NCBI GenBank assembly: GCA_031384605.1
Contig: JANNAT010000142.1
Span: 6,367-70,366 of the forward strand
Reading direction: 5' to 3'
DNA from: Cypionkella sp.
Lineage (GTDB): Bacteria; Pseudomonadota; Alphaproteobacteria; Rhodobacterales; Rhodobacteraceae
DNA: 64,000 nucleotides
The position numbers were made by a program, and so were the translations under genes. This document shows, piece by piece, positions 6,581 through 14,668 of this stretch (its first letter is position 1; every line of letters starts with the position of its first letter). The notes beneath the pieces are model-generated. The model worked only from the letters and a program-made list of their open reading frames with translations. It was not told the origin of the DNA and did no database searches.

Positions 6581-6693
6581 GACGCATCCTTAGGGCAAGC
6601 GGCGCAAAGTCTTTTGCCCGCCCGCTACCCTTGTTAAACAAATCAGCCCGGTCAAGCCCAGCGGGCTGCCAATGCGGTGCTGGATATTTGAAT

Positions 6694-6770
6694 GTGGTGC
6701 CCCTAAACGTATTCGAACTGCCGACCCCATCATTATGAATGACGTGGGGAAGCAACTTTACCACTTGATT
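6694..6770 (-). other. tRNA-like 3' fragment (not a foldable tRNA)
   Basis: Minus strand reads ...CGTCATTCATAATGATGGGGTCGGCAGTTCGAATACGTTTAGGGGCACCA. This gives a CAT anticodon-loop-like hairpin, a GTTCGAAT T-loop and an acceptor 3' strand plus ACCA. The T-stem 3' half does not pair and no matching 5' acceptor strand (GCCCCTA) exists. Confidence 0.35.
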
Positions 6771-6836
6771 TAATACGGTTTTTCGACGGACGCAAACCGC
6801 TTTACAAGGATGTCACAGGTTTTGCGGTTTGTGACG

Positions 6837-7286
6837 TCACTTCAGATCGACGCCGTCGATCTGCACATACCATTGGGCAGCATCCCTGAGACCCTTCTCT
6901 TGCGCGCCTTTGAACTTCTTGGCTTCGTCCTTGCGCCAAACTTCTCCATGATAGGGGTTATCAGGAAAGTTTGGATCATCCTTGATGGGGGCGTAACCAA
7001 CCATGAGGTCTAGGGAGCGAATGCTTTCCGCCGTAAATGACACGGCACCTTGAAAATCAGGTGTAATCACATACTCCCGTGGGTCCAGTTCAGCATTCTG
7101 GATCAACGCCTCAATGTCCACGGACATGCCAGCCTTGGGACTCGAAGACTTACTATAGAGACCTTTTGAAATTCGCTGCCTGCGAACCTCTCCATTGTCG
7201 TCCCAGACAAGCTGATGCTTAGGCACACGGCGGACGATCACATCCGCTGCGGAGATTTCCTCTTCATCGTAAGGATCCACCGTCAA
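6837..7286 (-). CDS. hypothetical protein C of three-gene cassette (149 aa, candidate effector)
   Basis: ORF with TTG start at 7286 (GTG alternative at 7280) and GAGGG about 10 nt upstream. In the same frame as upstream ORF B, separated from it by a TAG and two codons. Motifs RRVPKH, GMSVD and DNPYHGEVW. No family assignable from memory. Confidence 0.6.
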   Translation of the reverse strand: MTVDPYDEEEISAADVIVRRVPKHQLVWDDNGEVRRQRISKGLYSKSSSPKAGMSVDIEALIQNAELDPREYVITPDFQGAVSFTAESIRSLDLMVGYAPIKDDPNFPDNPYHGEVWRKDEAKKFKGAQEKGLRDAAQWYVQIDGVDLK

Positions 7287-7292
7287 GGAACA

Positions 7293-7799
7293 CTAGCCCT
7301 CGACCTGCATCAGGGCAGGAATCCGCTTTGCCGCGAGGGCGGAAACCCATTTAGACAGTTCAGTGAAATCAGTCTGAACTTCGATTTCTTCCTCTTCATC
7401 AGTCATCAAATCGGTTCTGCAAGCAACTACTTCATAAGGCGCAAGCACTTCAATCTCGAGATCATACTTGTTCATGTGCCACTCCAAACGGAGTGTGCCG
7501 TCGGACATTGGTACCAACTGCGGAGGAGGCAGCGCTTGGGTGTAGAGACTTTCAATAATGTTTGCCGCAAATTGCGCGCAGGTGAATGAGACAGGCAAAC
7601 CGGCATATCCATCCCAACCCTTACGGAGGGATGTTAAAGTGTTGAAATCACCTTCTAGTTCCCTGACCCAAGGGGACCGCGGATTCGAAACGCGCACCCG
7701 CGCTTGCCTCACGGGGAGCGACGAGATCGGATCATCAACCTGAAAGAAGTTCGCGACTTCGTCCTGGTACACGGTCGAAAATGCTGATCGAGCGTTCAT
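7293..7799 (-). CDS. hypothetical protein B of three-gene cassette (168 aa, acidic C-terminal part)
   Basis: ATG at 7799 shares one base with the TAA stop of ORF A (TAATG). Motifs LRKGWDGYAGLPV and PPPQLVPMSDGTLRLEWH, plus the acidic run TDEEEEIEVQTD. Confidence 0.65.
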   Translation of the reverse strand: MNARSAFSTVYQDEVANFFQVDDPISSLPVRQARVRVSNPRSPWVRELEGDFNTLTSLRKGWDGYAGLPVSFTCAQFAANIIESLYTQALPPPQLVPMSDGTLRLEWHMNKYDLEIEVLAPYEVVACRTDLMTDEEEEIEVQTDFTELSKWVSALAAKRIPALMQVEG

Positions 7800-8596
7800 T
7801 ATAGCCTCCCCCAGATCGTGTGGGCTTCAGAAGTTGTAATTTCAGAGAACCTGGTAACGATTGCGTCTCGGCCTGCTGCAAGAAATTGCATAGCTGCATC
7901 CACGCCATTGCCCGCTGGCTTGCCTTTAAACGTCAGAGACAGCCTAAAGACCTTTTGCTTCCCATCGACCGTGAAGGCCGACTGTAACTGGTGAGTGAGG
8001 CGGGCATATGGCTTGCCATTGGCCGATCTCATGACCTGACCAAAACTAACATTCAACCCTTCCATCTCGAACGATCCCGTCCAGATGCGAAACCACTTCT
8101 CAGCTTGCGAAAATTCGTCCACGGGGATGATGTTGATATAGGCCACTTCGGCTTGATTTATGTCAATTTTATAGGCGAAGTCGGACGCAAAGTGCTTTTC
8201 CAACCGGCGCAACTGGGTTTCCATCGCTCCCGACAGCCCCTCGAAATGCGGGTAGGGCTGAGTATTGGGCTGCCGCCGCCAGTTTGTGATAAAGCGGTCC
8301 GGTTGAAACTGTAACAGGTGGTTTTCGTCTTCTGAAACGAACCAGAGTCTGCTCCCAACCGGAGGCGCACCTACAATGAACTGCGGGCCGATTTGCAGGT
8401 TTGCGCCGCCAAAGGTCTCGAACTGGGGGTCGATGACTGAATGCTCTTGGACCTTGGGGAACTCTTGGCGAAACAGGTCCCAAATGCCCTTTGCATAAAC
8501 CGACGCATACGCGGGAACCGACGCGAATTGCACGCCCAGAACAACCTCATCCAACGGAGGTCGCGAGTAGTCTGGAAGGTGGTCAGGCCGTATCAT
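7799..8596 (-). CDS. hypothetical protein A of three-gene cassette (265 aa, TIGR04255-like by recollection)
   Basis: GGGAGAG RBS 7 nt before ATG 8596. The N-terminus PDYSRPPLDEVVLGVQFASVP and the length of about 260 aa match my memory of the uncharacterised TIGR04255 family. Confidence 0.7.
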   Translation of the reverse strand: MIRPDHLPDYSRPPLDEVVLGVQFASVPAYASVYAKGIWDLFRQEFPKVQEHSVIDPQFETFGGANLQIGPQFIVGAPPVGSRLWFVSEDENHLLQFQPDRFITNWRRQPNTQPYPHFEGLSGAMETQLRRLEKHFASDFAYKIDINQAEVAYINIIPVDEFSQAEKWFRIWTGSFEMEGLNVSFGQVMRSANGKPYARLTHQLQSAFTVDGKQKVFRLSLTFKGKPAGNGVDAAMQFLAAGRDAIVTRFSEITTSEAHTIWGRL

Positions 8597-8673
8597 CGAA
8601 AATCTCTCCCAAGACCTTGTAGCGCAGGGTTGACTCGCGTGACTAGCGCTAACTGCACCTCATAGATAAAAAT

Positions 8674-8693
8674 CCTTGACACTCCGTTCAAGG
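8674..8693 (-). terminator. hairpin followed by a T-run, downstream of tRNA-Thr (overlaps a possible cassette promoter)
   Basis: Minus strand reads CCTTGA-ACGGAGTG-TCAAGG followed by ATTTTTAT. A TTGAAC-N17-TATCTA sigma70-like pair (8691..8663) overlaps it and could drive the cassette. Confidence 0.4.
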
Positions 8694-8729
8694 TGAGTCC
8701 CGTGCCGAGTCGATTGTGTCGGAAGCGCG

Positions 8730-8802
8730 TGCCGCACGAGGGACTCGAACCCCCTACCCCCTATTTACGAAACAGGTGCTCTACCGGATGAGCTAGTGCG
8801 GC
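8730..8802 (-). tRNA. tRNA-Thr (anticodon CGT), no encoded CCA
   Basis: Hand-folded 73-nt cloverleaf: GCCGCAC TA GCTC ATCCGGTA GAGC A CCTGT TTCGTAA ATAGG GGGTA GGGGG TTCGAGT CCCTC GTGCGGC A. All stems pair. The 3' flank is CGC, not CCA. Confidence 0.9.
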
Positions 8803-9144
8803 CACGCGTTTGTGCATGTAAACGACGAGGGTGAATCCTGCAAGTCAAATACCTGCAGCGGAAGAACGAACGGGCCTCAGGCAACAAACCGGAGCAGCGA
8901 TCCGAAGGCCAGCGTCAGAAGCGTCTTGATTATGGGAGGTCCACGTCAGTGATGCGACGTCCTACGCTCACCCAGCGCGCACATTTCCCTGTGTCTCGTG
9001 TTTTCGCCTGCCATGATGGGGCGCGACCAATGAACCGCCATGCGCCTACGCGCTCCTGCGGACGGCATCACGACGTCAAACTCCTGCCCCAATGTCTTGC
9101 TAAACCGCCCAGAAAATGGAGTAGAAGCCGTGAGTTCATGGAGA

Positions 9145-9507
9145 ATGCAAGACAGGCCTTACTGGCCAACCTTGATCGAACGCGTTGAAGTGATGGTTGC
9201 GAATGGCGAACATCGCCACTCCATCAGCGAAGCTATCTTTAAGGAGTTCGGCCTTCCTCGTCAGTCGTTCGGTATCGCCGTCCGCCGTGGGGACATTCCC
9301 GCCATGCCTGCAAAAGACAAATTGCGGGCGGCTGCGCGCAAGGCGGGTGAAACGACATATCGCTCGGAGACCTGCGTGACGTGCGGCAGTCTTATCCGGT
9401 ATGTAGCAGACTACCGCTGCGTGGCCTGCGACATGAAATATGCAAAGACCTACGCCCCAATGGCTGAAACGACGATGGACCGCCCTCATGCCACCCAGCT
9501 GTTATAA
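9145..9507 (+). CDS. hypothetical protein with C-terminal CxxC...CxxC zinc ribbon
   Basis: ORF 9040..9507 trimmed to ATG 9145 (GTG 9130 also possible, with GGAG upstream). Contains CVTCGSLIRYVADYRCVAC. Confidence 0.5.
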   Translation: MQDRPYWPTLIERVEVMVANGEHRHSISEAIFKEFGLPRQSFGIAVRRGDIPAMPAKDKLRAAARKAGETTYRSETCVTCGSLIRYVADYRCVACDMKYAKTYAPMAETTMDRPHATQLL

Positions 9508-9528
9508 CCGAATTATCAGGCCTGCGGC

Positions 9529-9762
9529 TCAGTCCAAATCTCCGAAGCAGTCTGACTCGGTCATAAACCCTAACGCATGGGCGCGCCGTTGCTCGTTCAG
9601 CGGGTCATCCACGAACTTGCCTTCCAGCGGGTAGGCCGTGGCCTGCGCGCCGTCGGCGAAGATCACCAGCCACACGCCGGGGTCTAGCTGCTCGACACGG
9701 GCAATTTCCGGCAGGCCCGAGAACATGCCCCGAACGCCTTCGTCTGTGTCAGGGTGTGGCAT
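9529..9762 (-). CDS. small hypothetical protein
   Basis: ORF 9529..9870 trimmed to the first ATG (9762); ATG 9726 is preceded by GAAGG. Convergent with the zinc-ribbon ORF. No recognisable domain. Confidence 0.35.
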   Translation of the reverse strand: MPHPDTDEGVRGMFSGLPEIARVEQLDPGVWLVIFADGAQATAYPLEGKFVDDPLNEQRRAHALGFMTESDCFGDLD

Positions 9763-10090
9763 TCGGCGGCGATCCTGTAGGGCGTGGGGCGCACGGTCTT
9801 GGGGCGCGATGCAATGATGGCCAAGGCACGACGGCGACCGAGGCGCGGGTTGGGTCGGTCGCAGCGCCACTCCTCGCGCAAAACAAGCGGGAAGTCACGC
9901 TCTGGCAGCGAGGGGGTGGGTCGGATGAAGAACATGCAGAAGCCTCCGTTGCTGATCGAGGCTCATGCATAAGTTCCATTTTTGTTCTTGCTCAACCAAA
10001 GTTTTTGCACCACCTTCCGCCTTCACCGTTTGTTAGCCTTGGACAACCGATAGTGGCTTGCGATAGTCAATATGTAGCGAAGGAGCGACC

Positions 10091-11236
10091 ATGCCGCACA
10101 CTTACTACGATTTCTTCGCGGGCGGCGGCATGGCTGGATTCGGCCTTGGCACGGACTGGAAGTGCTTGTTCGCGAATGACATTGACGCAAAGAAAGCGGC
10201 CAGCTACCGCGCGAACCATTACGGCGGCAAAGAGCTGTTGCTCAAGGACGTCGCGACAGTGACGCCGGATGAAATACCCGGTTACGCCGATCTCGTCTGG
10301 GCATCGTTCCCATGCCAAGACTTATCACTGGCTGGTAAAGGCGCTGGGCTGGCGGGCAAACGCTCAGGCATGTTCAAACCGTTTTGGCAGCTTGTCCGCG
10401 ACCTTCATGCCGAAGGGCGTGGCCCAAAGATGGTGGCCGTTGAGAATGTCTATGGCGCGATTACCAGCAATGGCGGGCGCGACTTTGCCACGCTGGCCGC
10501 ATCGTTCTCGGGACTCGGGTATCGGTTCGGGGCAGTCGTCGTCGATGCGGTTCACTTCTTGCCGCAGTCACGCCCGCGCTTCATCATCATCGGAATTAGG
10601 GGCGATCTTCGTATCCCAGACGGTTGCATACAAGATGCACCGTCGTCGGTCTGGCACCCACCCGCACTGATCGAAGGTCACAACCTGCTTTCGGTAACGG
10701 CAAAAGCACGTTGGGTATGGTGGAATCTGCCCGTCCCACAGGCGCGGGGAACCAAACTATCCGACCTGATTGAGGACCACCCGAAAGGTGTGAAGTGGCA
10801 CACAAAAGCCGAGACGCAATACCTGCTCGACATGATGACCGACCTCAACCGCAAAAAGGTGGAAGCGGCAAAACAGCTTGGCACAAAGGCTGTCGGCACG
10901 ATCTATCGGCGCACGCGACTCGACGAGAATGGAATCAAACGCCAGCGGGCAGAGATACGGTTCGATGAGGTAGCCGGATGCCTGCGAACCCCTGCGGGCG
11001 GATCAAGCCGCCAGACCATCATGATCGTTGAAGGGGACAAGGTGCGGTCGCGCCTCCTGTCGCCGCGTGAGGCTGTATCGCTGATGGGCTTGCCGCCGTC
11101 CTACATTCTGCCTGAGCGGTACAATGACGCCTACAAGCTGGCTGGTGACGGCGTTGCCGTGCCTGTTGTCAGACATTTAGCAGAGGCGATCTTTGAGCCG
11201 CTGCTAATGCGGAATCGACTCGCTTTGGTCGCGTAA
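10091..11236 (+). CDS. DNA (cytosine-5)-methyltransferase
   Basis: 381 aa with GAAGGAG RBS. C5-MTase motifs are present in order: FAGGGMAGFGL (I), SFPCQDLSLAG (IV), AVENV (VI), QSRPRFIIIG (VIII), GDGVAVPV (X). Confidence 0.92.
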   Translation: MPHTYYDFFAGGGMAGFGLGTDWKCLFANDIDAKKAASYRANHYGGKELLLKDVATVTPDEIPGYADLVWASFPCQDLSLAGKGAGLAGKRSGMFKPFWQLVRDLHAEGRGPKMVAVENVYGAITSNGGRDFATLAASFSGLGYRFGAVVVDAVHFLPQSRPRFIIIGIRGDLRIPDGCIQDAPSSVWHPPALIEGHNLLSVTAKARWVWWNLPVPQARGTKLSDLIEDHPKGVKWHTKAETQYLLDMMTDLNRKKVEAAKQLGTKAVGTIYRRTRLDENGIKRQRAEIRFDEVAGCLRTPAGGSSRQTIMIVEGDKVRSRLLSPREAVSLMGLPPSYILPERYNDAYKLAGDGVAVPVVRHLAEAIFEPLLMRNRLALVA

Positions 11237-11255
11237 TTTCCAGTAAGTATCGGTC

Positions 11256-11975
11256 ATGACTGACCGAAACCCAGATGATACCAATTTCCCGCCATTCGAA
11301 ACCGAAGACCTTCGGACGAATTTGGCTGCATTTTTATCTGTCCCTTTTGACGACCCAATATTGGGTCGCGCGCGACCTGTCGGGTCGTTCACTTGGGGCG
11401 TGTATGCCTTCTTCGATTATGACGGTGAGCCGATCTACGTGGGGCAGACCAAAGAGAAGATCAGCACGCGGATTCGGAGGCACCTGACAAACCAACGCAC
11501 AGATGCTGTCGCAATGTCGGTGCTTGATCCGTTCGAGGTTTACGAGATCGAGGTGTGGCCGCTGCCGCAGTTTGAGAAAACGCCGAAAGGCGATCTTGCC
11601 GCCAAGGCTCACTTGGATGCGCTGGAACATTTCGTCTATAGCAACGCCGTGACCAACAGCACATTTAGGGCCGTGCTGAACGAGAAAGACCCGCCCGCAC
11701 CCACGGTGGCCGTTACAGCCCCACCCTCCCTGCGCTATTGCATCGTGTCGGAGCACGTCCACAAGATCAGGTCGCACCCTGATTTCCGCACTGCGCGCCG
11801 CGCGCTGATCATATCGCGTCTTGCGCAAGTAATCGCTGAACGGAAGGTGCAAGGCGGTTTGCGCCGCGTGCTGCTGACACAGGCCAAGCGCCTGCAATGG
11901 CTTGCTGATCGCCGCTACAATGCCCTTGGTGGTGCGGCATCGGTCGAAACCGAAGCCAGCGGCGAGGACGAATAG
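11256..11975 (+). CDS. GIY-YIG nuclease family protein, putative restriction endonuclease partner
   Basis: 239 aa, 19 nt downstream of the methyltransferase gene on the same strand. Contains GVYAFFDYDGEPIYVGQTKEKISTRIRRH, followed by YEIEVW (GIY..YIG, conserved Arg and Glu). Confidence 0.7.
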   Translation: MTDRNPDDTNFPPFETEDLRTNLAAFLSVPFDDPILGRARPVGSFTWGVYAFFDYDGEPIYVGQTKEKISTRIRRHLTNQRTDAVAMSVLDPFEVYEIEVWPLPQFEKTPKGDLAAKAHLDALEHFVYSNAVTNSTFRAVLNEKDPPAPTVAVTAPPSLRYCIVSEHVHKIRSHPDFRTARRALIISRLAQVIAERKVQGGLRRVLLTQAKRLQWLADRRYNALGGAASVETEASGEDE

Positions 11976-12140
11976 CAGCCAACGCAGAACGCGTCGTGGC
12001 TTAGGCGGTTCGATGATCGCGCCCCATCACGGTAGGGCGAAACACCACAATCGCAGTGCTACCCCGGTTCTGCTGCGTCTCTCGTGGCGTTCAAGGTGCA
12101 ACGGCCCAGTCGGTCAACATGAACGAAGGGACAGCGCGCG

Positions 12141-12323
12141 TCAGAACGGGCTTTCGTTCGGATCGGACGGGGGCACCTTCGGGTTGGGCTGGTGCTGTAG
12201 TCCATACTTCTTGAGCATCTCAGGATGAACGGTCAGGCCAAGTGACAGGGCTTCAAGAATAAGCTTGTGCTCTTTCTGCTTTACTTTGTCGTGCACTGCT
12301 CGAAGCAGCCTCACCATCGCCAA
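12141..12323 (-). CDS. small ORF, possibly the tail of a decayed larger gene
   Basis: 60 aa with TTG/ATG start. The same frame stays open and protein-like for about 28 more codons upstream (HERLSKALASATQAYGYNTLFEP) with no start codon. Confidence 0.3.
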   Translation of the reverse strand: MAMVRLLRAVHDKVKQKEHKLILEALSLGLTVHPEMLKKYGLQHQPNPKVPPSDPNESPF

Positions 12324-12465
12324 TGGCTCAAACAGTGTGTTGTAACCATATGCTTGGGTAGCACTCGCAAGCGCCTTGCTTAACCGCTCATGACGTCGTG
12401 ATGATCGGTCCTATCCCGAGTTCGCTGCAACCGAGAGTTGAGTTGTTGTGCCCTCGTTCGTTGTC

Positions 12466-12837
12466 TTAACCGAGTAATGGTATGGACGCCGACAACTGCA
12501 ACACGTCGCGCCACCAAGGCGCGCCCGCTATTTGCTTCATCCAGTGGACCAACTGATCCGCCTCAGGCGGACCGTCGGCGGGCAGATACTGTCGCGGGTG
12601 AGCCGTCTGGCTCTCGATCAGGCTGTCCAGCGCTTGCACTGGCTCGTCCCAGACCGGATGGCCGTTCAAGGCGCGGTTCCAAGAACTGTAGTCCTTCGCC
12701 TCGTCGAACCAGTCCGCCTTAAACGGGGTGTTGCACAGATCAACGATCCGTTGCTTCGTGACGTTGAACCGCAAGAGTCGTGCTGCGTCATTCGGATGAA
12801 ATTGCGCGACTTCGCGTTCTTCTTTTTGCTCCCGCAT
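12466..12837 (-). CDS. hypothetical protein translationally coupled to the Xis/AlpA-like gene
   Basis: 123/124 aa. Its ATG overlaps the TGA of the upstream gene (TGATG). No recognisable domain. Confidence 0.5.
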   Translation of the reverse strand: MREQKEEREVAQFHPNDAARLLRFNVTKQRIVDLCNTPFKADWFDEAKDYSSWNRALNGHPVWDEPVQALDSLIESQTAHPRQYLPADGPPEADQLVHWMKQIAGAPWWRDVLQLSASIPLLG

Positions 12838-13070
12838 CACTGATGCTCCTTCAAGAAGGTCACCAGATCATCGCGCAGGTAGCGAACAATGCGGGTATTT
12901 GGCTGGCTGTATTTCGGACCGGTCTTGTCTTTGCGCCAGCGAAACAGCGTTTCGGTTGTGACCCCGACATACTCGGCTGCTTCCGCAGGGGTCATCACTG
13001 CGGGTTGATGCGACCGGATAAGATCACGGTGCAGGTCAGCAAGCTGCTGGCCGATCATTTCGATTTTCAT
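12837..13070 (-). CDS. AlpA/excisionase-family helix-turn-helix DNA-binding protein
   Basis: 77 aa. MTPAEAAEYVGVTTETLFRWRKDKTGPKY is the MerR/AlpA-type excisionase HTH. It lies directly downstream of the integrase on the same strand. Confidence 0.75.
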   Translation of the reverse strand: MKIEMIGQQLADLHRDLIRSHQPAVMTPAEAAEYVGVTTETLFRWRKDKTGPKYSQPNTRIVRYLRDDLVTFLKEHQ

Positions 13071-13207
13071 AAGAGTTATCCAACGATGGGAGGTTACAGG
13101 GATATGCCCTCGTGGGGGCGATTTTCTCTGCGTTACCGTCGCTGGCCTTACTTCCCCTCAGGGCTAGTTTGGCCGTGCCGCACCGCTACACCGTTGATGT
13201 GATTGAA

Positions 13208-14440
13208 TTAGGCGGTCGCTTGGCGAATTTCAACAACATTGATAGGAGACAATCCGAATTGATTGTTGACGGAATTCGCAATCGCGTCTGCTGACCGCTT
13301 CTGCTCCTCCTGTGTCGGTTCGCCATAGTGACCGAGCATTCGCAGATCGTCGTCGGTCATGGTCTGCTGTGCAAGCCAGCGGTGAACGTGACGGGGCGCA
13401 ACCTCGCGGGCGGTGGACATCCACAGGTGGCGCAAATCGCCCGCCGCCGTCTTGGGCAAGCGGTCAAGCGCGTCCAGATGCCCACGTTCTTCGCCGATGA
13501 TGCGACGACTTGGAAATACCCAGTTGCAATCATCGGCCCGAATGTCGTGGAGGCGTTTAAACAGGCGCACCACGTCGTCGGCAATCGCGATGGTGCGCGA
13601 CACTTCCTGCTTCTTGAGCCTGTCGAACGTGACCGTGCCAGCGGCAAGGTTCACCTGATCCCATGTCAGCGAACGGAGCGAACGCCCCCTGAAACCCGTG
13701 TACCAAGTGATCAACCATGCAAGGCGGATATGTTCGTTTTCGATGTCGTCAATCTCGGCCTTCCGCACTTTCCAAGACACTCCCATGTCCAGCTTGCCTG
13801 TCTAGATCCGGCTTTTCATTTGGGTGTTGTCGAGCAAAGCGGGTATGGGCAGGGCAAGGGCGCACAGGCGATTGACGAACCGAACAACCGCGCCTGCAAA
13901 CCTTCTACGTCAACAAGTGGCACCCGACGGCGCAGAAAACGCGCGCGGTCAAACTCGGCCAATGGGCGGCATAGTGCACGCATTGCGCTTGGGCAAAGAA
14001 GCAGGTCGGAAAGGTCGTCCTCGACATTCAGGAGGGCAATGTTCGGACCAAGGAGGAGAAGGCCGTCGAGGCCGAGGCGCTGGGCGTGCCGACATTCCGC
14101 GAGGCGCTGGATCAATACATCGCGCATCGGACAACTGCCCGCGCATCTGGTAAGGCGCGCATTATCGAAGCGACCTCCAAGGACTATCAGCAGTCGTTCG
14201 ACAAGCATTTGGGCAAGTGGGAAAAGGTGCTGGTGACGGACCTGCCCGTTTTGGAGATCAATCGCTACCTGAACGCATTGCAGGTTGCGCACCCTCATGC
14301 TGCCCACCGCGCGGCGTCGATTTCGTCCCTCCCGACGTGACGCACAACCTCAACCCCTTCACGTCGGGATCGGTGAACCAAGTGGTCTTGTCCGCGCTCA
14401 GGGTGCGCAGGTTCGTGTCGGTGAACTTGATCGCGGGCAT
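13208..14440 (-). pseudogene. tyrosine integrase (DUF4102 Arm-domain type) disrupted by an internal inversion and two in-frame TAG codons
   Basis: The Arm-domain N-terminus MPAIKFTDTNLRTLSADKTTWFTDPDVKGLRLCVTSGGTKS lies on the minus strand (14440..14315). The middle part ...TFYVNKWHPTAQKTRAVKLGQW...TFREALDQYIAHR...INRYLNALQ... lies on the PLUS strand (13888..14314). The catalytic part VVRFVNRL...YTGFRGRSL...DLRHLW...LGHY lies on the minus strand (13887..13208). The pieces total 1233 nt, or 411 codons. Confidence 0.8.
13888..14314 (+). other. inverted internal segment of the integrase gene, bounded by a 6-bp inverted repeat
   Basis: CCGCGC at 13888-13893 and GCGCGG at 14309-14314 are exact reverse complements. 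Flipping this 427-bp segment joins all three coding pieces in one frame (checked by coordinate arithmetic mod 3 at both junctions). Confidence 0.7.
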
Positions 14441-14486
14441 TTTGTGGTTCCTTGTAACGCCGTTGGATTTACAGGGCCGACGATAC

Positions 14487-14565
14487 GATCTAACACCACC
14501 GTGACACAACCGAATGTTGGTCGGTTGCCTTATTTCATTGGGTAATGTTGATCTAACACCACCGT
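14487..14565. repeat. two 16-bp direct repeats GATCTAACACCACCGT just upstream of the integrase start
   Basis: Exact copies at 14487-14502 and 14550-14565, 63 bp apart start to start. AATGTTG is also duplicated next to them. The position fits arm-type integrase sites or an att region. Confidence 0.6.
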
Positions 14566-14668
14566 ATGTTGCCACAGTTTACGCATTACGAATGATGTGC
14601 TCTACGAGCTGAACTATTCGGGCAGTGAGCGTTTATTTATCAGCCTGTCACTGCCAGCACAAGATGCG

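Follow-up and report, generated by a model that had tools for sequence, protein, structure and literature searches.

A tyrosine-recombinase-type integrase gene in the window (the whole 64-kb stretch of DNA that we analysed) is broken into three pieces that lie on alternating strands, and its reading frame is further interrupted by TAG at codons 65 and 213; the gene is a pseudogene. We put at roughly 85% the probability that this gene, the integrase of an island integrating at tRNA-Thr(CGT), was inactivated by a one-off illegitimate recombination which became fixed, and that the island around it is decaying. The inversion inside the integrase is ordinary gene decay, a known kind of thing, and not a switch. 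It provides a clean and well-dated case in which a mobile element lost its integrase to a small balanced inversion. Taken alone it matters little, but it marks the 7.85-kb island as immobile and illustrates that six-frame tracks of open reading frames can conceal pseudogenes of this sort.

One integrase in three pieces

The original prediction of one integrase in three collinear pieces on alternating strands is borne out by both protein and DNA comparisons. In tblastn against the window, an intact integrase of 410 aa (P0001) aligns with its aa 1-41 at 14440..14318 (minus strand, E = 1e-20), aa 40-183 at 13897..14328 (plus strand, E = 7e-78) and aa 181-410 at 13900..13211 (minus strand, E = 4e-148), and the same query detects no second copy of this integrase elsewhere in the window. 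The Logan contig that encodes P0001, which serves as our intact reference locus (L001), aligns by blastn in three corresponding blocks: nucleotides 2-293 with 14612→14322 (minus), 291-717 with 13897→14322 (plus) and 716-1832 with 13899→12782 (minus). These blocks meet at 13897-13899 and at 14322. At both junctions integrase joins integrase directly, with 0 inserted bases in blastn and in the codon alignment. The peptides quoted in the original prediction are also reproduced when the three stretches are translated.

The exact extent of the inverted segment, however, had to be revised (Table 1). A flip of 13888..14314, as proposed at the outset, does keep the frame and yields 411 codons, but its boundaries are wrong, by 12 bp on the left and by 6 bp on the right: relative to all nine aligned homologues, STPRLQ is inserted after GGTK and AASIAG is lost before AVVRFVN. 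The plus-strand frame runs beyond 14314 (…HRAASI) through 14322, and the minus-strand frame runs above 13885, reading AGAVVRF… from 13897. With the true boundaries the flipped junctions read …GGTK/TFYV…AASI/AGAVV… (slashes denote breakpoints), and the protein is collinear through both of them with all nine homologues; this comparison with intact integrases was one of the two refutation tests that had been named beforehand. The position of the breakpoints is ambiguous by 2 bp, as AA at 13898-99 and TT at 14321-22 constitute a 2-bp inverted microhomology.

Once flipped at the true boundaries, 410 of 410 positions align without a gap to P0001 and L001 (92% identity in DNA, 96% in protein), with 0 gaps and 95 mismatches over the 1233 nt of the L001 integrase gene. 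Among the codons that differ from L001, 72 are synonymous and 16 non-synonymous, both CAG→TAG changes being counted in. As a query with X at both stops, the flipped protein retrieved 91 homologues, the best of which is P0001 itself (410 aa, 93% identity, 100% coverage). Flipping does not restore the gene, because TAG at codons 65 and 213 remain in frame. The claim that a normal 411-codon integrase would result is accordingly withdrawn; both stops had fallen within ellipses of the translations on which it was based. Reassignment of the stop codon at the two TAGs was also considered and rejected, since each is a single C-to-T change from CAG, one of them is polymorphic, and the gene is broken anyway.

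The reconstructed protein matches PF00589 at residues 236-318 (E = 1.2e-8; 35.4 bits against a cut-off of 27.1) and gives a weak profile match to XerA (5hxy). Across the aligned homologues, R251, R337-H338 and H371-Y372 do not vary. The first His of the HxxR motif is replaced by an invariant Gly (G334), which is a family-wide peculiarity, and the sole candidate Tyr directly follows a His. The description as a DUF4102-type integrase is weakly supported: PF13356 (DUF4102 / Arm-DNA-bind_3) is below threshold on the reconstructed protein, with no match at E <= 0.1, and is listed for some homologues only, being weak wherever a strength is given. We found no literature on this integrase family; our searches returned papers on invertons and on Islanders.

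Table 1. Coordinates of the integrase pieces, the island and related features in the window
Feature	Position	Strand	Remarks
5' 40 nt of native tRNA-Thr(CGT), attL side	14584..14623	-	Core repeat CACATCATTCGTAATG at 14599..14584
Two exact 16-nt direct repeats GATCTAACACCACCGT	14487-14502, 14550-14565		Between attL and integrase start
Integrase codons 1-40 (MPAIKF...GGTK)	14321..14440	-	Original orientation; tblastn, blastn, homologue alignment
Inverted block, integrase codons 41-181	13900..14320 (strict, 421 bp); equivalently 13898..14322 (425 bp)	+	blastn against L001, gapless post-flip alignment, tblastn
Codon 181, split by junction	14320; 13899-98		a at 14320 plus tt at 13899-98
Right hexamer GCGCGG of the original prediction	14309..14314		Within true block; chance
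In-frame TAG, codon 65	13972..13974	+	CAG in L001; polymorphic, run X3 has C at 13972
Left hexamer CCGCGC of the original prediction	13888..13893		Outside true block; chance
Integrase codons 182-410 and stop codon (catalytic half)	13208..13897	-	Original orientation; blastn, tblastn, PF00589
In-frame TAG, codon 213	13802..13804	-	CAG in L001; kept in every inverted allele checked (X2, X3, X8)
HTH_17 excisionase-like gene, intact	12837..13070	-	87% identity to L001 counterpart
Scar, portal-to-terminase module missing	12282..12782		Corresponds to L001 1832-6757, about 4.9 kb
GIY-YIG nuclease-domain protein	11256-11975	+	Island cargo
C5 cytosine methyltransferase	10091-11236	+	Island cargo
Complete 74-nt tRNA-Thr(CGT), no encoded CCA	8729..8802	-	Inside island; conserved motif GTCGTTTACATGCA upstream
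attR side	6695..6746	-	Core CACGTCATTCATAATG at 6746..6731, then native tRNA-Thr 3' half at 6730..6695

The inversion in public metagenomes

An 801-bp stretch of this sequence occurs in many public metagenome runs. We aligned independently built contigs of eight of these runs (X1-X8) to the window; two studies are represented, the first on freshwater sediment and the second on sediment. Both junctions are present on a single contig in X1 (4044 nt, 0 differences from the window), X2 (1897 nt, 7 differences), X3 (2507 nt, 5 differences) and X6 (1280 nt, 2 differences). In X4, X5 and X8 separate contigs cover each junction singly, with 0-1 differences each, and a 229-nt contig of X7 covers the right junction only, with 0 differences. 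Contig depth is approximately 3-15x overall, and 10-15x where one contig spans both junctions, equal to that of the flanks. No strand-changing joints are reported in any of the eight runs, and a same-strain uninverted form is absent among their contigs. In X1, X2, X3 and X6, moreover, there is neither a graph branch nor an uninverted contig of the same strain. This comparison was made on contigs, without raw reads, and contigs drop rare variants, so that a same-strain uninverted form in the minority is possible.

The assembly graph of X4 has a branch exactly at 13899/13900, consisting of a 203-nt contig at a depth of 3.5. Its first 30 nt are identical to 13870-13899, and the remainder matches 14320…14152 in reverse complement, apart from 17 mismatches. 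This branch represents the ancestral junction in a co-occurring relative that is about 10% diverged, not a reversion within the strain itself. A more distant relative with an ancestral GGTK/TWYV junction is present in X7 and X8. The inversion is real and is fixed in a small population cluster (<=0.4% divergence). An exact scan of the contigs of species-representative genomes for the derived left junction gave 0 matches; this lineage is therefore absent among those genomes. JGI metagenome contigs were likewise scanned for the derived junction and for an ancestral junction rebuilt from the flanks in the window, with 0 matches for both; as the positive control was negative too, these scans are uninformative about an uninverted allele in this lineage.

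When did the integrase break? Run X3 has CAG at codon 65 and yet is inverted, which implies that the inversion predates the codon-65 stop. It may nevertheless not have been the first inactivating lesion, as the codon-213 stop could be older. When differences are polarised with two outgroups, 40 synonymous and 15 non-synonymous changes fall on the window branch, and 12 and 4, respectively, on the L001 branch. The low non-synonymous share indicates that most of the divergence accrued under purifying selection and, consequently, that inactivation is comparatively recent. GC→AT changes make up 35 of the 55 changes on the window branch; GC3 is 0.735 in the window integrase, 0.793 in L001 and 0.654 in the host hemY gene. 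Such a drift towards AT fits amelioration and/or unselected decay.

Origin of the inversion

How might the segment have been reversed? We envision a single non-homologous (illegitimate) recombination that turned round the 421 bp carrying codons 41-181. The inversion is balanced, with no base gained or lost and with the 2-bp AA/TT as the sole match between the breakpoints, and it is fixed in the lineage as one among several lesions of a decaying island. Conceivably, two breaks were rejoined in reversed orientation, or the template was switched during replication, or subunits were exchanged by a topoisomerase; the sequence cannot separate these candidate routes. The ancestral breakpoint sequences read GGGACGAAA/ACCTTC and GTCGATT/GCAGGC and, in inverted register, share only the 2-bp AA/TT, the breakpoint flanks having nothing in common beyond it. 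Neither an IS copy nor a transposase is found at the breakpoints, and no other recombinase or invertase gene is present among the open reading frames of 6.7-14.6 kb. Breakpoints that share 2 bp, with no IS or repeat, are like those of microhomology-associated illegitimate recombination in bacteria. Most documented cases of that kind are deletions or duplications, and reports of exactly balanced inversions like this one of 421 bp are less common. An inversion without loss at either junction is also tidier than typical products of end joining, which makes a concerted enzymatic mechanism conceivable.

A tyrosine recombinase, possibly the integrase itself, might have acted aberrantly on two cryptic sites inside the gene. 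In its favour, recombinase products are exactly conservative and so is this inversion, and parts of the att core and arm in L003 (TTCGTAATG / CGCAAACC) are similar to TTTCGT on the right (14321-14326) and to GCAAACC on the left. We nevertheless regard this as very unlikely, because tyrosine recombinases require a matching overlap of 6-8 bp and the two ancestral sites share 2 bp in inverted orientation, and because the similarities to att do not exceed chance for the number of comparisons made (estimate about 0.2). A different scenario is a programmed, reversible inversion that toggles the integrase in the manner of inverton phase variation. Intragenic invertons have been described, and there as here the inverted segment lies wholly within a coding sequence (Chanin et al., bioRxiv 10.1101/2023.03.11.532203); a rare opposite orientation would also be compatible with the contig data. 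The present case differs from them, however, in that inverted repeats of more than 2 bp do not flank the segment, the island offers no invertase or other recombinase gene, and a second orientation is absent from the contigs of the eight runs, where X1, X2, X3 and X6 show neither an uninverted contig nor a branch and the branch in X4 belongs to the diverged relative. In addition, neither orientation encodes a complete protein, and a gene flipped back would keep one or two stop codons. Phase variation is very unlikely on these grounds. Alternatively, the inversion could be a selected or reversible lock on an island that split the host tRNA-Thr(CGT) and supplies the working copy. Such a lock might be released by rare re-inversion, as in an inverton devoid of long repeats, or might reflect selection for immobilisation after decay of the tRNA halves; we deem it decidedly improbable.

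An error of assembly or a chimera would confine the inversion to this assembly. The source is probably metagenome-derived, and amplification chimeras can yield small inversions, but contigs with the inverted junctions come from eight separate run assemblies, covering two studies, at a depth equal to that of the flanks, and some of these contigs carry 2-7 single-nucleotide differences from the window and hence represent other strains. An artefact, which the original prediction had listed as one option, is therefore extremely improbable. Least credible of all is recombination between the 6-bp inverted repeats CCGCGC and GCGCGG, which had been put forward as the elements bounding the segment and to which we give next to no credence. 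The hexamers are indeed present at 13888 and 14309, and a flip between them stays in frame, but it entails a 6-aa insertion and a 6-aa deletion relative to every homologue, and in the DNA alignment the breakpoints fall at 13898-13900 and 14320-14322. Since only the right-hand copy is within the true block, the hexamers were direct repeats in the ancestor, not inverted ones. CCGCGC occurs 151 times on both strands of the 64 kb, against 124 ± 11 expected, that is, about once per 420 bp, and six copies fall within 13888-14397. As judged from these alignments, the two hexamers match by chance, do not sit at the breakpoints and took no part in the inversion. We thus retain a single illegitimate recombination as the preferred reading.

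A decaying island in a split tRNA gene

The island extends over 7853 bp (6731..14583). The host is a Cypionkella-like freshwater bacterium of the Paracoccaceae; its hemY protein and that of the metagenome-assembled genome Cypionkella sp. GFS_8474 share 92% identity. In the corresponding locus of GFS_8474 (L008), and in many relatives, hemY is followed by an intact 76-nt tRNA-Thr(CGT). Synteny between the window and L008, the closest relative, breaks off exactly at 14584 (tRNA position 40) and picks up again near 6594; the empty site with an intact tRNA is found in L008 and in at least 12 other relatives. The core repeats at attL and attR are identical at 14 of 16 positions, and the native 3' half differs from the L008 tRNA by 3 mismatches. 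Along the minus strand from attL, the GATCTAACACCACCGT repeats are followed by the broken integrase, the HTH_17 gene, the scar, the GIY-YIG gene and the C5 methyltransferase gene, and then by two small genes common to L001, the complete tRNA-Thr(CGT) and three open reading frames, one of them TIGR04255. An Rfam scan of 8-16 kb detected tRNA only. The GATCTAACACCACCGT repeats are partly conserved in relatives and may be arm-type binding sites of the integrase; the C5 methyltransferase and the GIY-YIG protein probably form a restriction-modification pair.

Apart from the inversion, the lesions of the island comprise the two CAG-to-TAG changes, the loss of the portal/terminase region and point mutations that affect each half of the split tRNA. 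Without an integrase the island cannot excise, and it is thus a locked-in remnant. It resembles other decayed or domesticated integrative islands and defective prophages in several ways: its integrase pseudogene carries more than one lesion, structural genes have been lost, the cargo (methyltransferase, nuclease, tRNA) has been kept, and the element is fixed in the lineage. Decayed islands usually lose their integrase by frameshift, stop codon, deletion or IS insertion, whereas here a small, exactly balanced intragenic inversion is involved.

For integration into the anticodon loop of a tRNA gene, phage P22 at thrW provides a comparison. The integrase lies between the split halves of the tDNA, with direct repeats at the ends, which is the arrangement by which Islanders are defined (PMC4383910). 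Islander-type islands of the anticodon-loop class, as presented in the citation of Williams 2002 by PMC4383910, likewise have a tyrosine integrase next to an att site in the anticodon stem-loop of tRNA-Thr, with an excisionase-like HTH gene alongside. The island described here departs from them in three respects: the block of att identity is about 16 bp (tRNA positions 25-40), the tRNA is not regenerated, and a separate complete tRNA-Thr(CGT) is present.

Islands normally restore the split tDNA by means of a fragment carried in attP (PMC4383910). Here, restoration from attP seems, on the basis of sequence comparison, to be replaced by a whole extra tRNA-Thr(CGT) gene. ARAGORN predicts no tRNA at either island junction of the window, at the junctions of the intact island of Tabrizicola sp. 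SY72 (L070/L105), or at attL of L001, L003, L034, L088, L089, L093 and L102-L112. A truncated junction, in which the 5' half ends in …TTCGTAATG and element sequence follows, precedes intact integrases of the subfamily at no fewer than 14 loci. This integrase subfamily appears to interrupt tRNA-Thr(CGT) at the anticodon stem-loop, to leave the gene unrestored and to bring along a complete replacement with a promoter-like motif of its own. We also considered whether the tRNA at 8729-8802 could be a hybrid of an island-borne 5' half and the native 3' half. This was rejected, because base pairing in its acceptor and anticodon stems is internal to the gene and these stems do not match the displaced 5' half.

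A split target combined with a replacement tRNA is at odds with the textbook view, in which islands that integrate into tRNA genes rebuild the target, and such a layout would defeat island finders that need a full tDNA plus a displaced fragment. The tRNA arrangement of this island family is a more promising lead than the inversion of the integrase, and a proper survey is needed. The pattern currently comprises two complete examples and one remnant. ARAGORN found no second tRNA within 10 kb downstream of the integrase at 26 loci, a distance to be read against intact islands of about 12-15 kb with the tRNA at the far end, and no direct repeats marking island ends were found in relatives within the 10-kb flanks. 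In Tabrizicola sp. SY72, an intact island of about 14.6 kb has both its ends on one contig, which holds both the hemY-anchored locus L070 and L105. One end consists of the native 3' half, the core and the shared island arm CTTCCCCACGTCATTCGTAATG. Some 90 nt inwards from there is a complete tRNA-Thr(CGT), with the motif GTCGTTTAAACGCA upstream of it; the far end holds the integrase and the 5' half. A decayed version of the SY72 layout is found in L023. Integrases of a sister subfamily, by comparison, adjoin an intact, regenerated tRNA-Thr(TGT).

Split target tRNA and the island-borne tRNA

The island family inserts into tRNA-Thr(CGT) at a split point in the anticodon stem-loop, and the core repeat of about 16 bp corresponds to tRNA positions 25-40. 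The tRNA is regenerated at neither of the two island junctions. A second, complete tRNA-Thr(CGT), differing in sequence, lies inside the island close to attR, the end far from the integrase, and is preceded by a conserved GTCGTTTAAACGCA-like motif. We find this layout in the window, in an intact island of an isolate and, as a remnant only, at one further locus (see table). Metagenome word depth rises from ~10-15x to ~85-270x over the tRNA fragment (window 14584-14616), as read in a single 74-nt depth bin (14554-14627). Conserved tRNA words are common to other community members, and it is for this reason that Logan contigs such as L001, which encodes an intact relative of the integrase, break at the tRNA fragment.

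Features of the island family, with coordinates and strand
Feature	Location	Strand	Remark
Split tRNA and internal complete tRNA-Thr(CGT)	window 6695-6746, 8729-8802, 14584-14623		
Split tRNA and internal complete tRNA-Thr(CGT)	L070 7513-7760 with L105		intact island, isolate Tabrizicola sp. SY72
Split tRNA and internal tRNA-Thr(CGT) layout	L023 6390-6600		remnant only
C5 cytosine methyltransferase (TIGR00675), then GIY-YIG-domain protein	window 10091-11975		methyltransferase intact
CAG to TAG nonsense codon 65	window 13972-13974	+	integrase
CAG to TAG nonsense codon	window 13802-13804	-	integrase
Two exact 16-nt direct repeats GATCTAACACCACCGT	window 14487-14502 and 14550-14565		between attL and integrase start

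The integrase, its candidate sites and its decay

Where tyrosine recombinases usually have H-x-x-R-H, the integrase family has G-D-L-R-H throughout (alignment A1; window codons 334-338), and its sole candidate catalytic Tyr immediately follows the conserved His, as LGHY (alignment A1; window codons 371-372). Within the catalytic domain, only the first half is matched by Pfam. The GATCTAACACCACCGT direct repeats are candidate arm-type integrase binding sites; relatives carry related repeats (…GGTGTTAGAAC…) at the same position.

Both nonsense codons of the window integrase adjoin another non-synonymous change (QG to stop-C and VQ to I-stop), and the codon-65 stop varies among samples, being CAG in X3, a public metagenome run that carries the inverted integrase. 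Since the common ancestor, the window branch has accumulated ~3.4x the substitutions of the L001 branch over the whole gene; 64% of those on the window branch are GC to AT, and GC3 is lowered toward the host value. Loss of selection alone leaves the synonymous excess of the window integrase unexplained.

Module and cargo

In intact relatives, a compact phage-like module, ~12-15 kb in all and similar to a small prophage or satellite, comprises the integrase, HTH_17, a DUF4055 portal-like protein and Terminase_6N. The window is deleted for this module (window 12282-12782 versus L001 1832-6757). The methyltransferase and GIY-YIG protein of the window island probably form a restriction-modification pair, as part of its cargo; in L001 the corresponding place is taken by a DUF3800 gene.

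A different MAG holds another decayed copy at the same hemY/tRNA-Thr site (L009 7746-8510), in which the integrase ends near codon 177 and is fused to a gene normally situated beyond the terminase. This truncation is close to the window breakpoint at codon 181, a proximity that may be coincidence.

tRNA-Thr(CGT) beside hemY in other genera

At five relative loci from several genera (L011, L023, L037, L060, L074), a tRNA-Thr(CGT) bearing the island-type promoter motif lies ~100-450 nt downstream of hemY, convergent with that gene rather than co-directional. In these genera, tRNAs brought in by islands may have taken the place of the native tRNA-Thr(CGT). Encoded CCA is absent in L011 and L023, the loci at which the 3' end was read.
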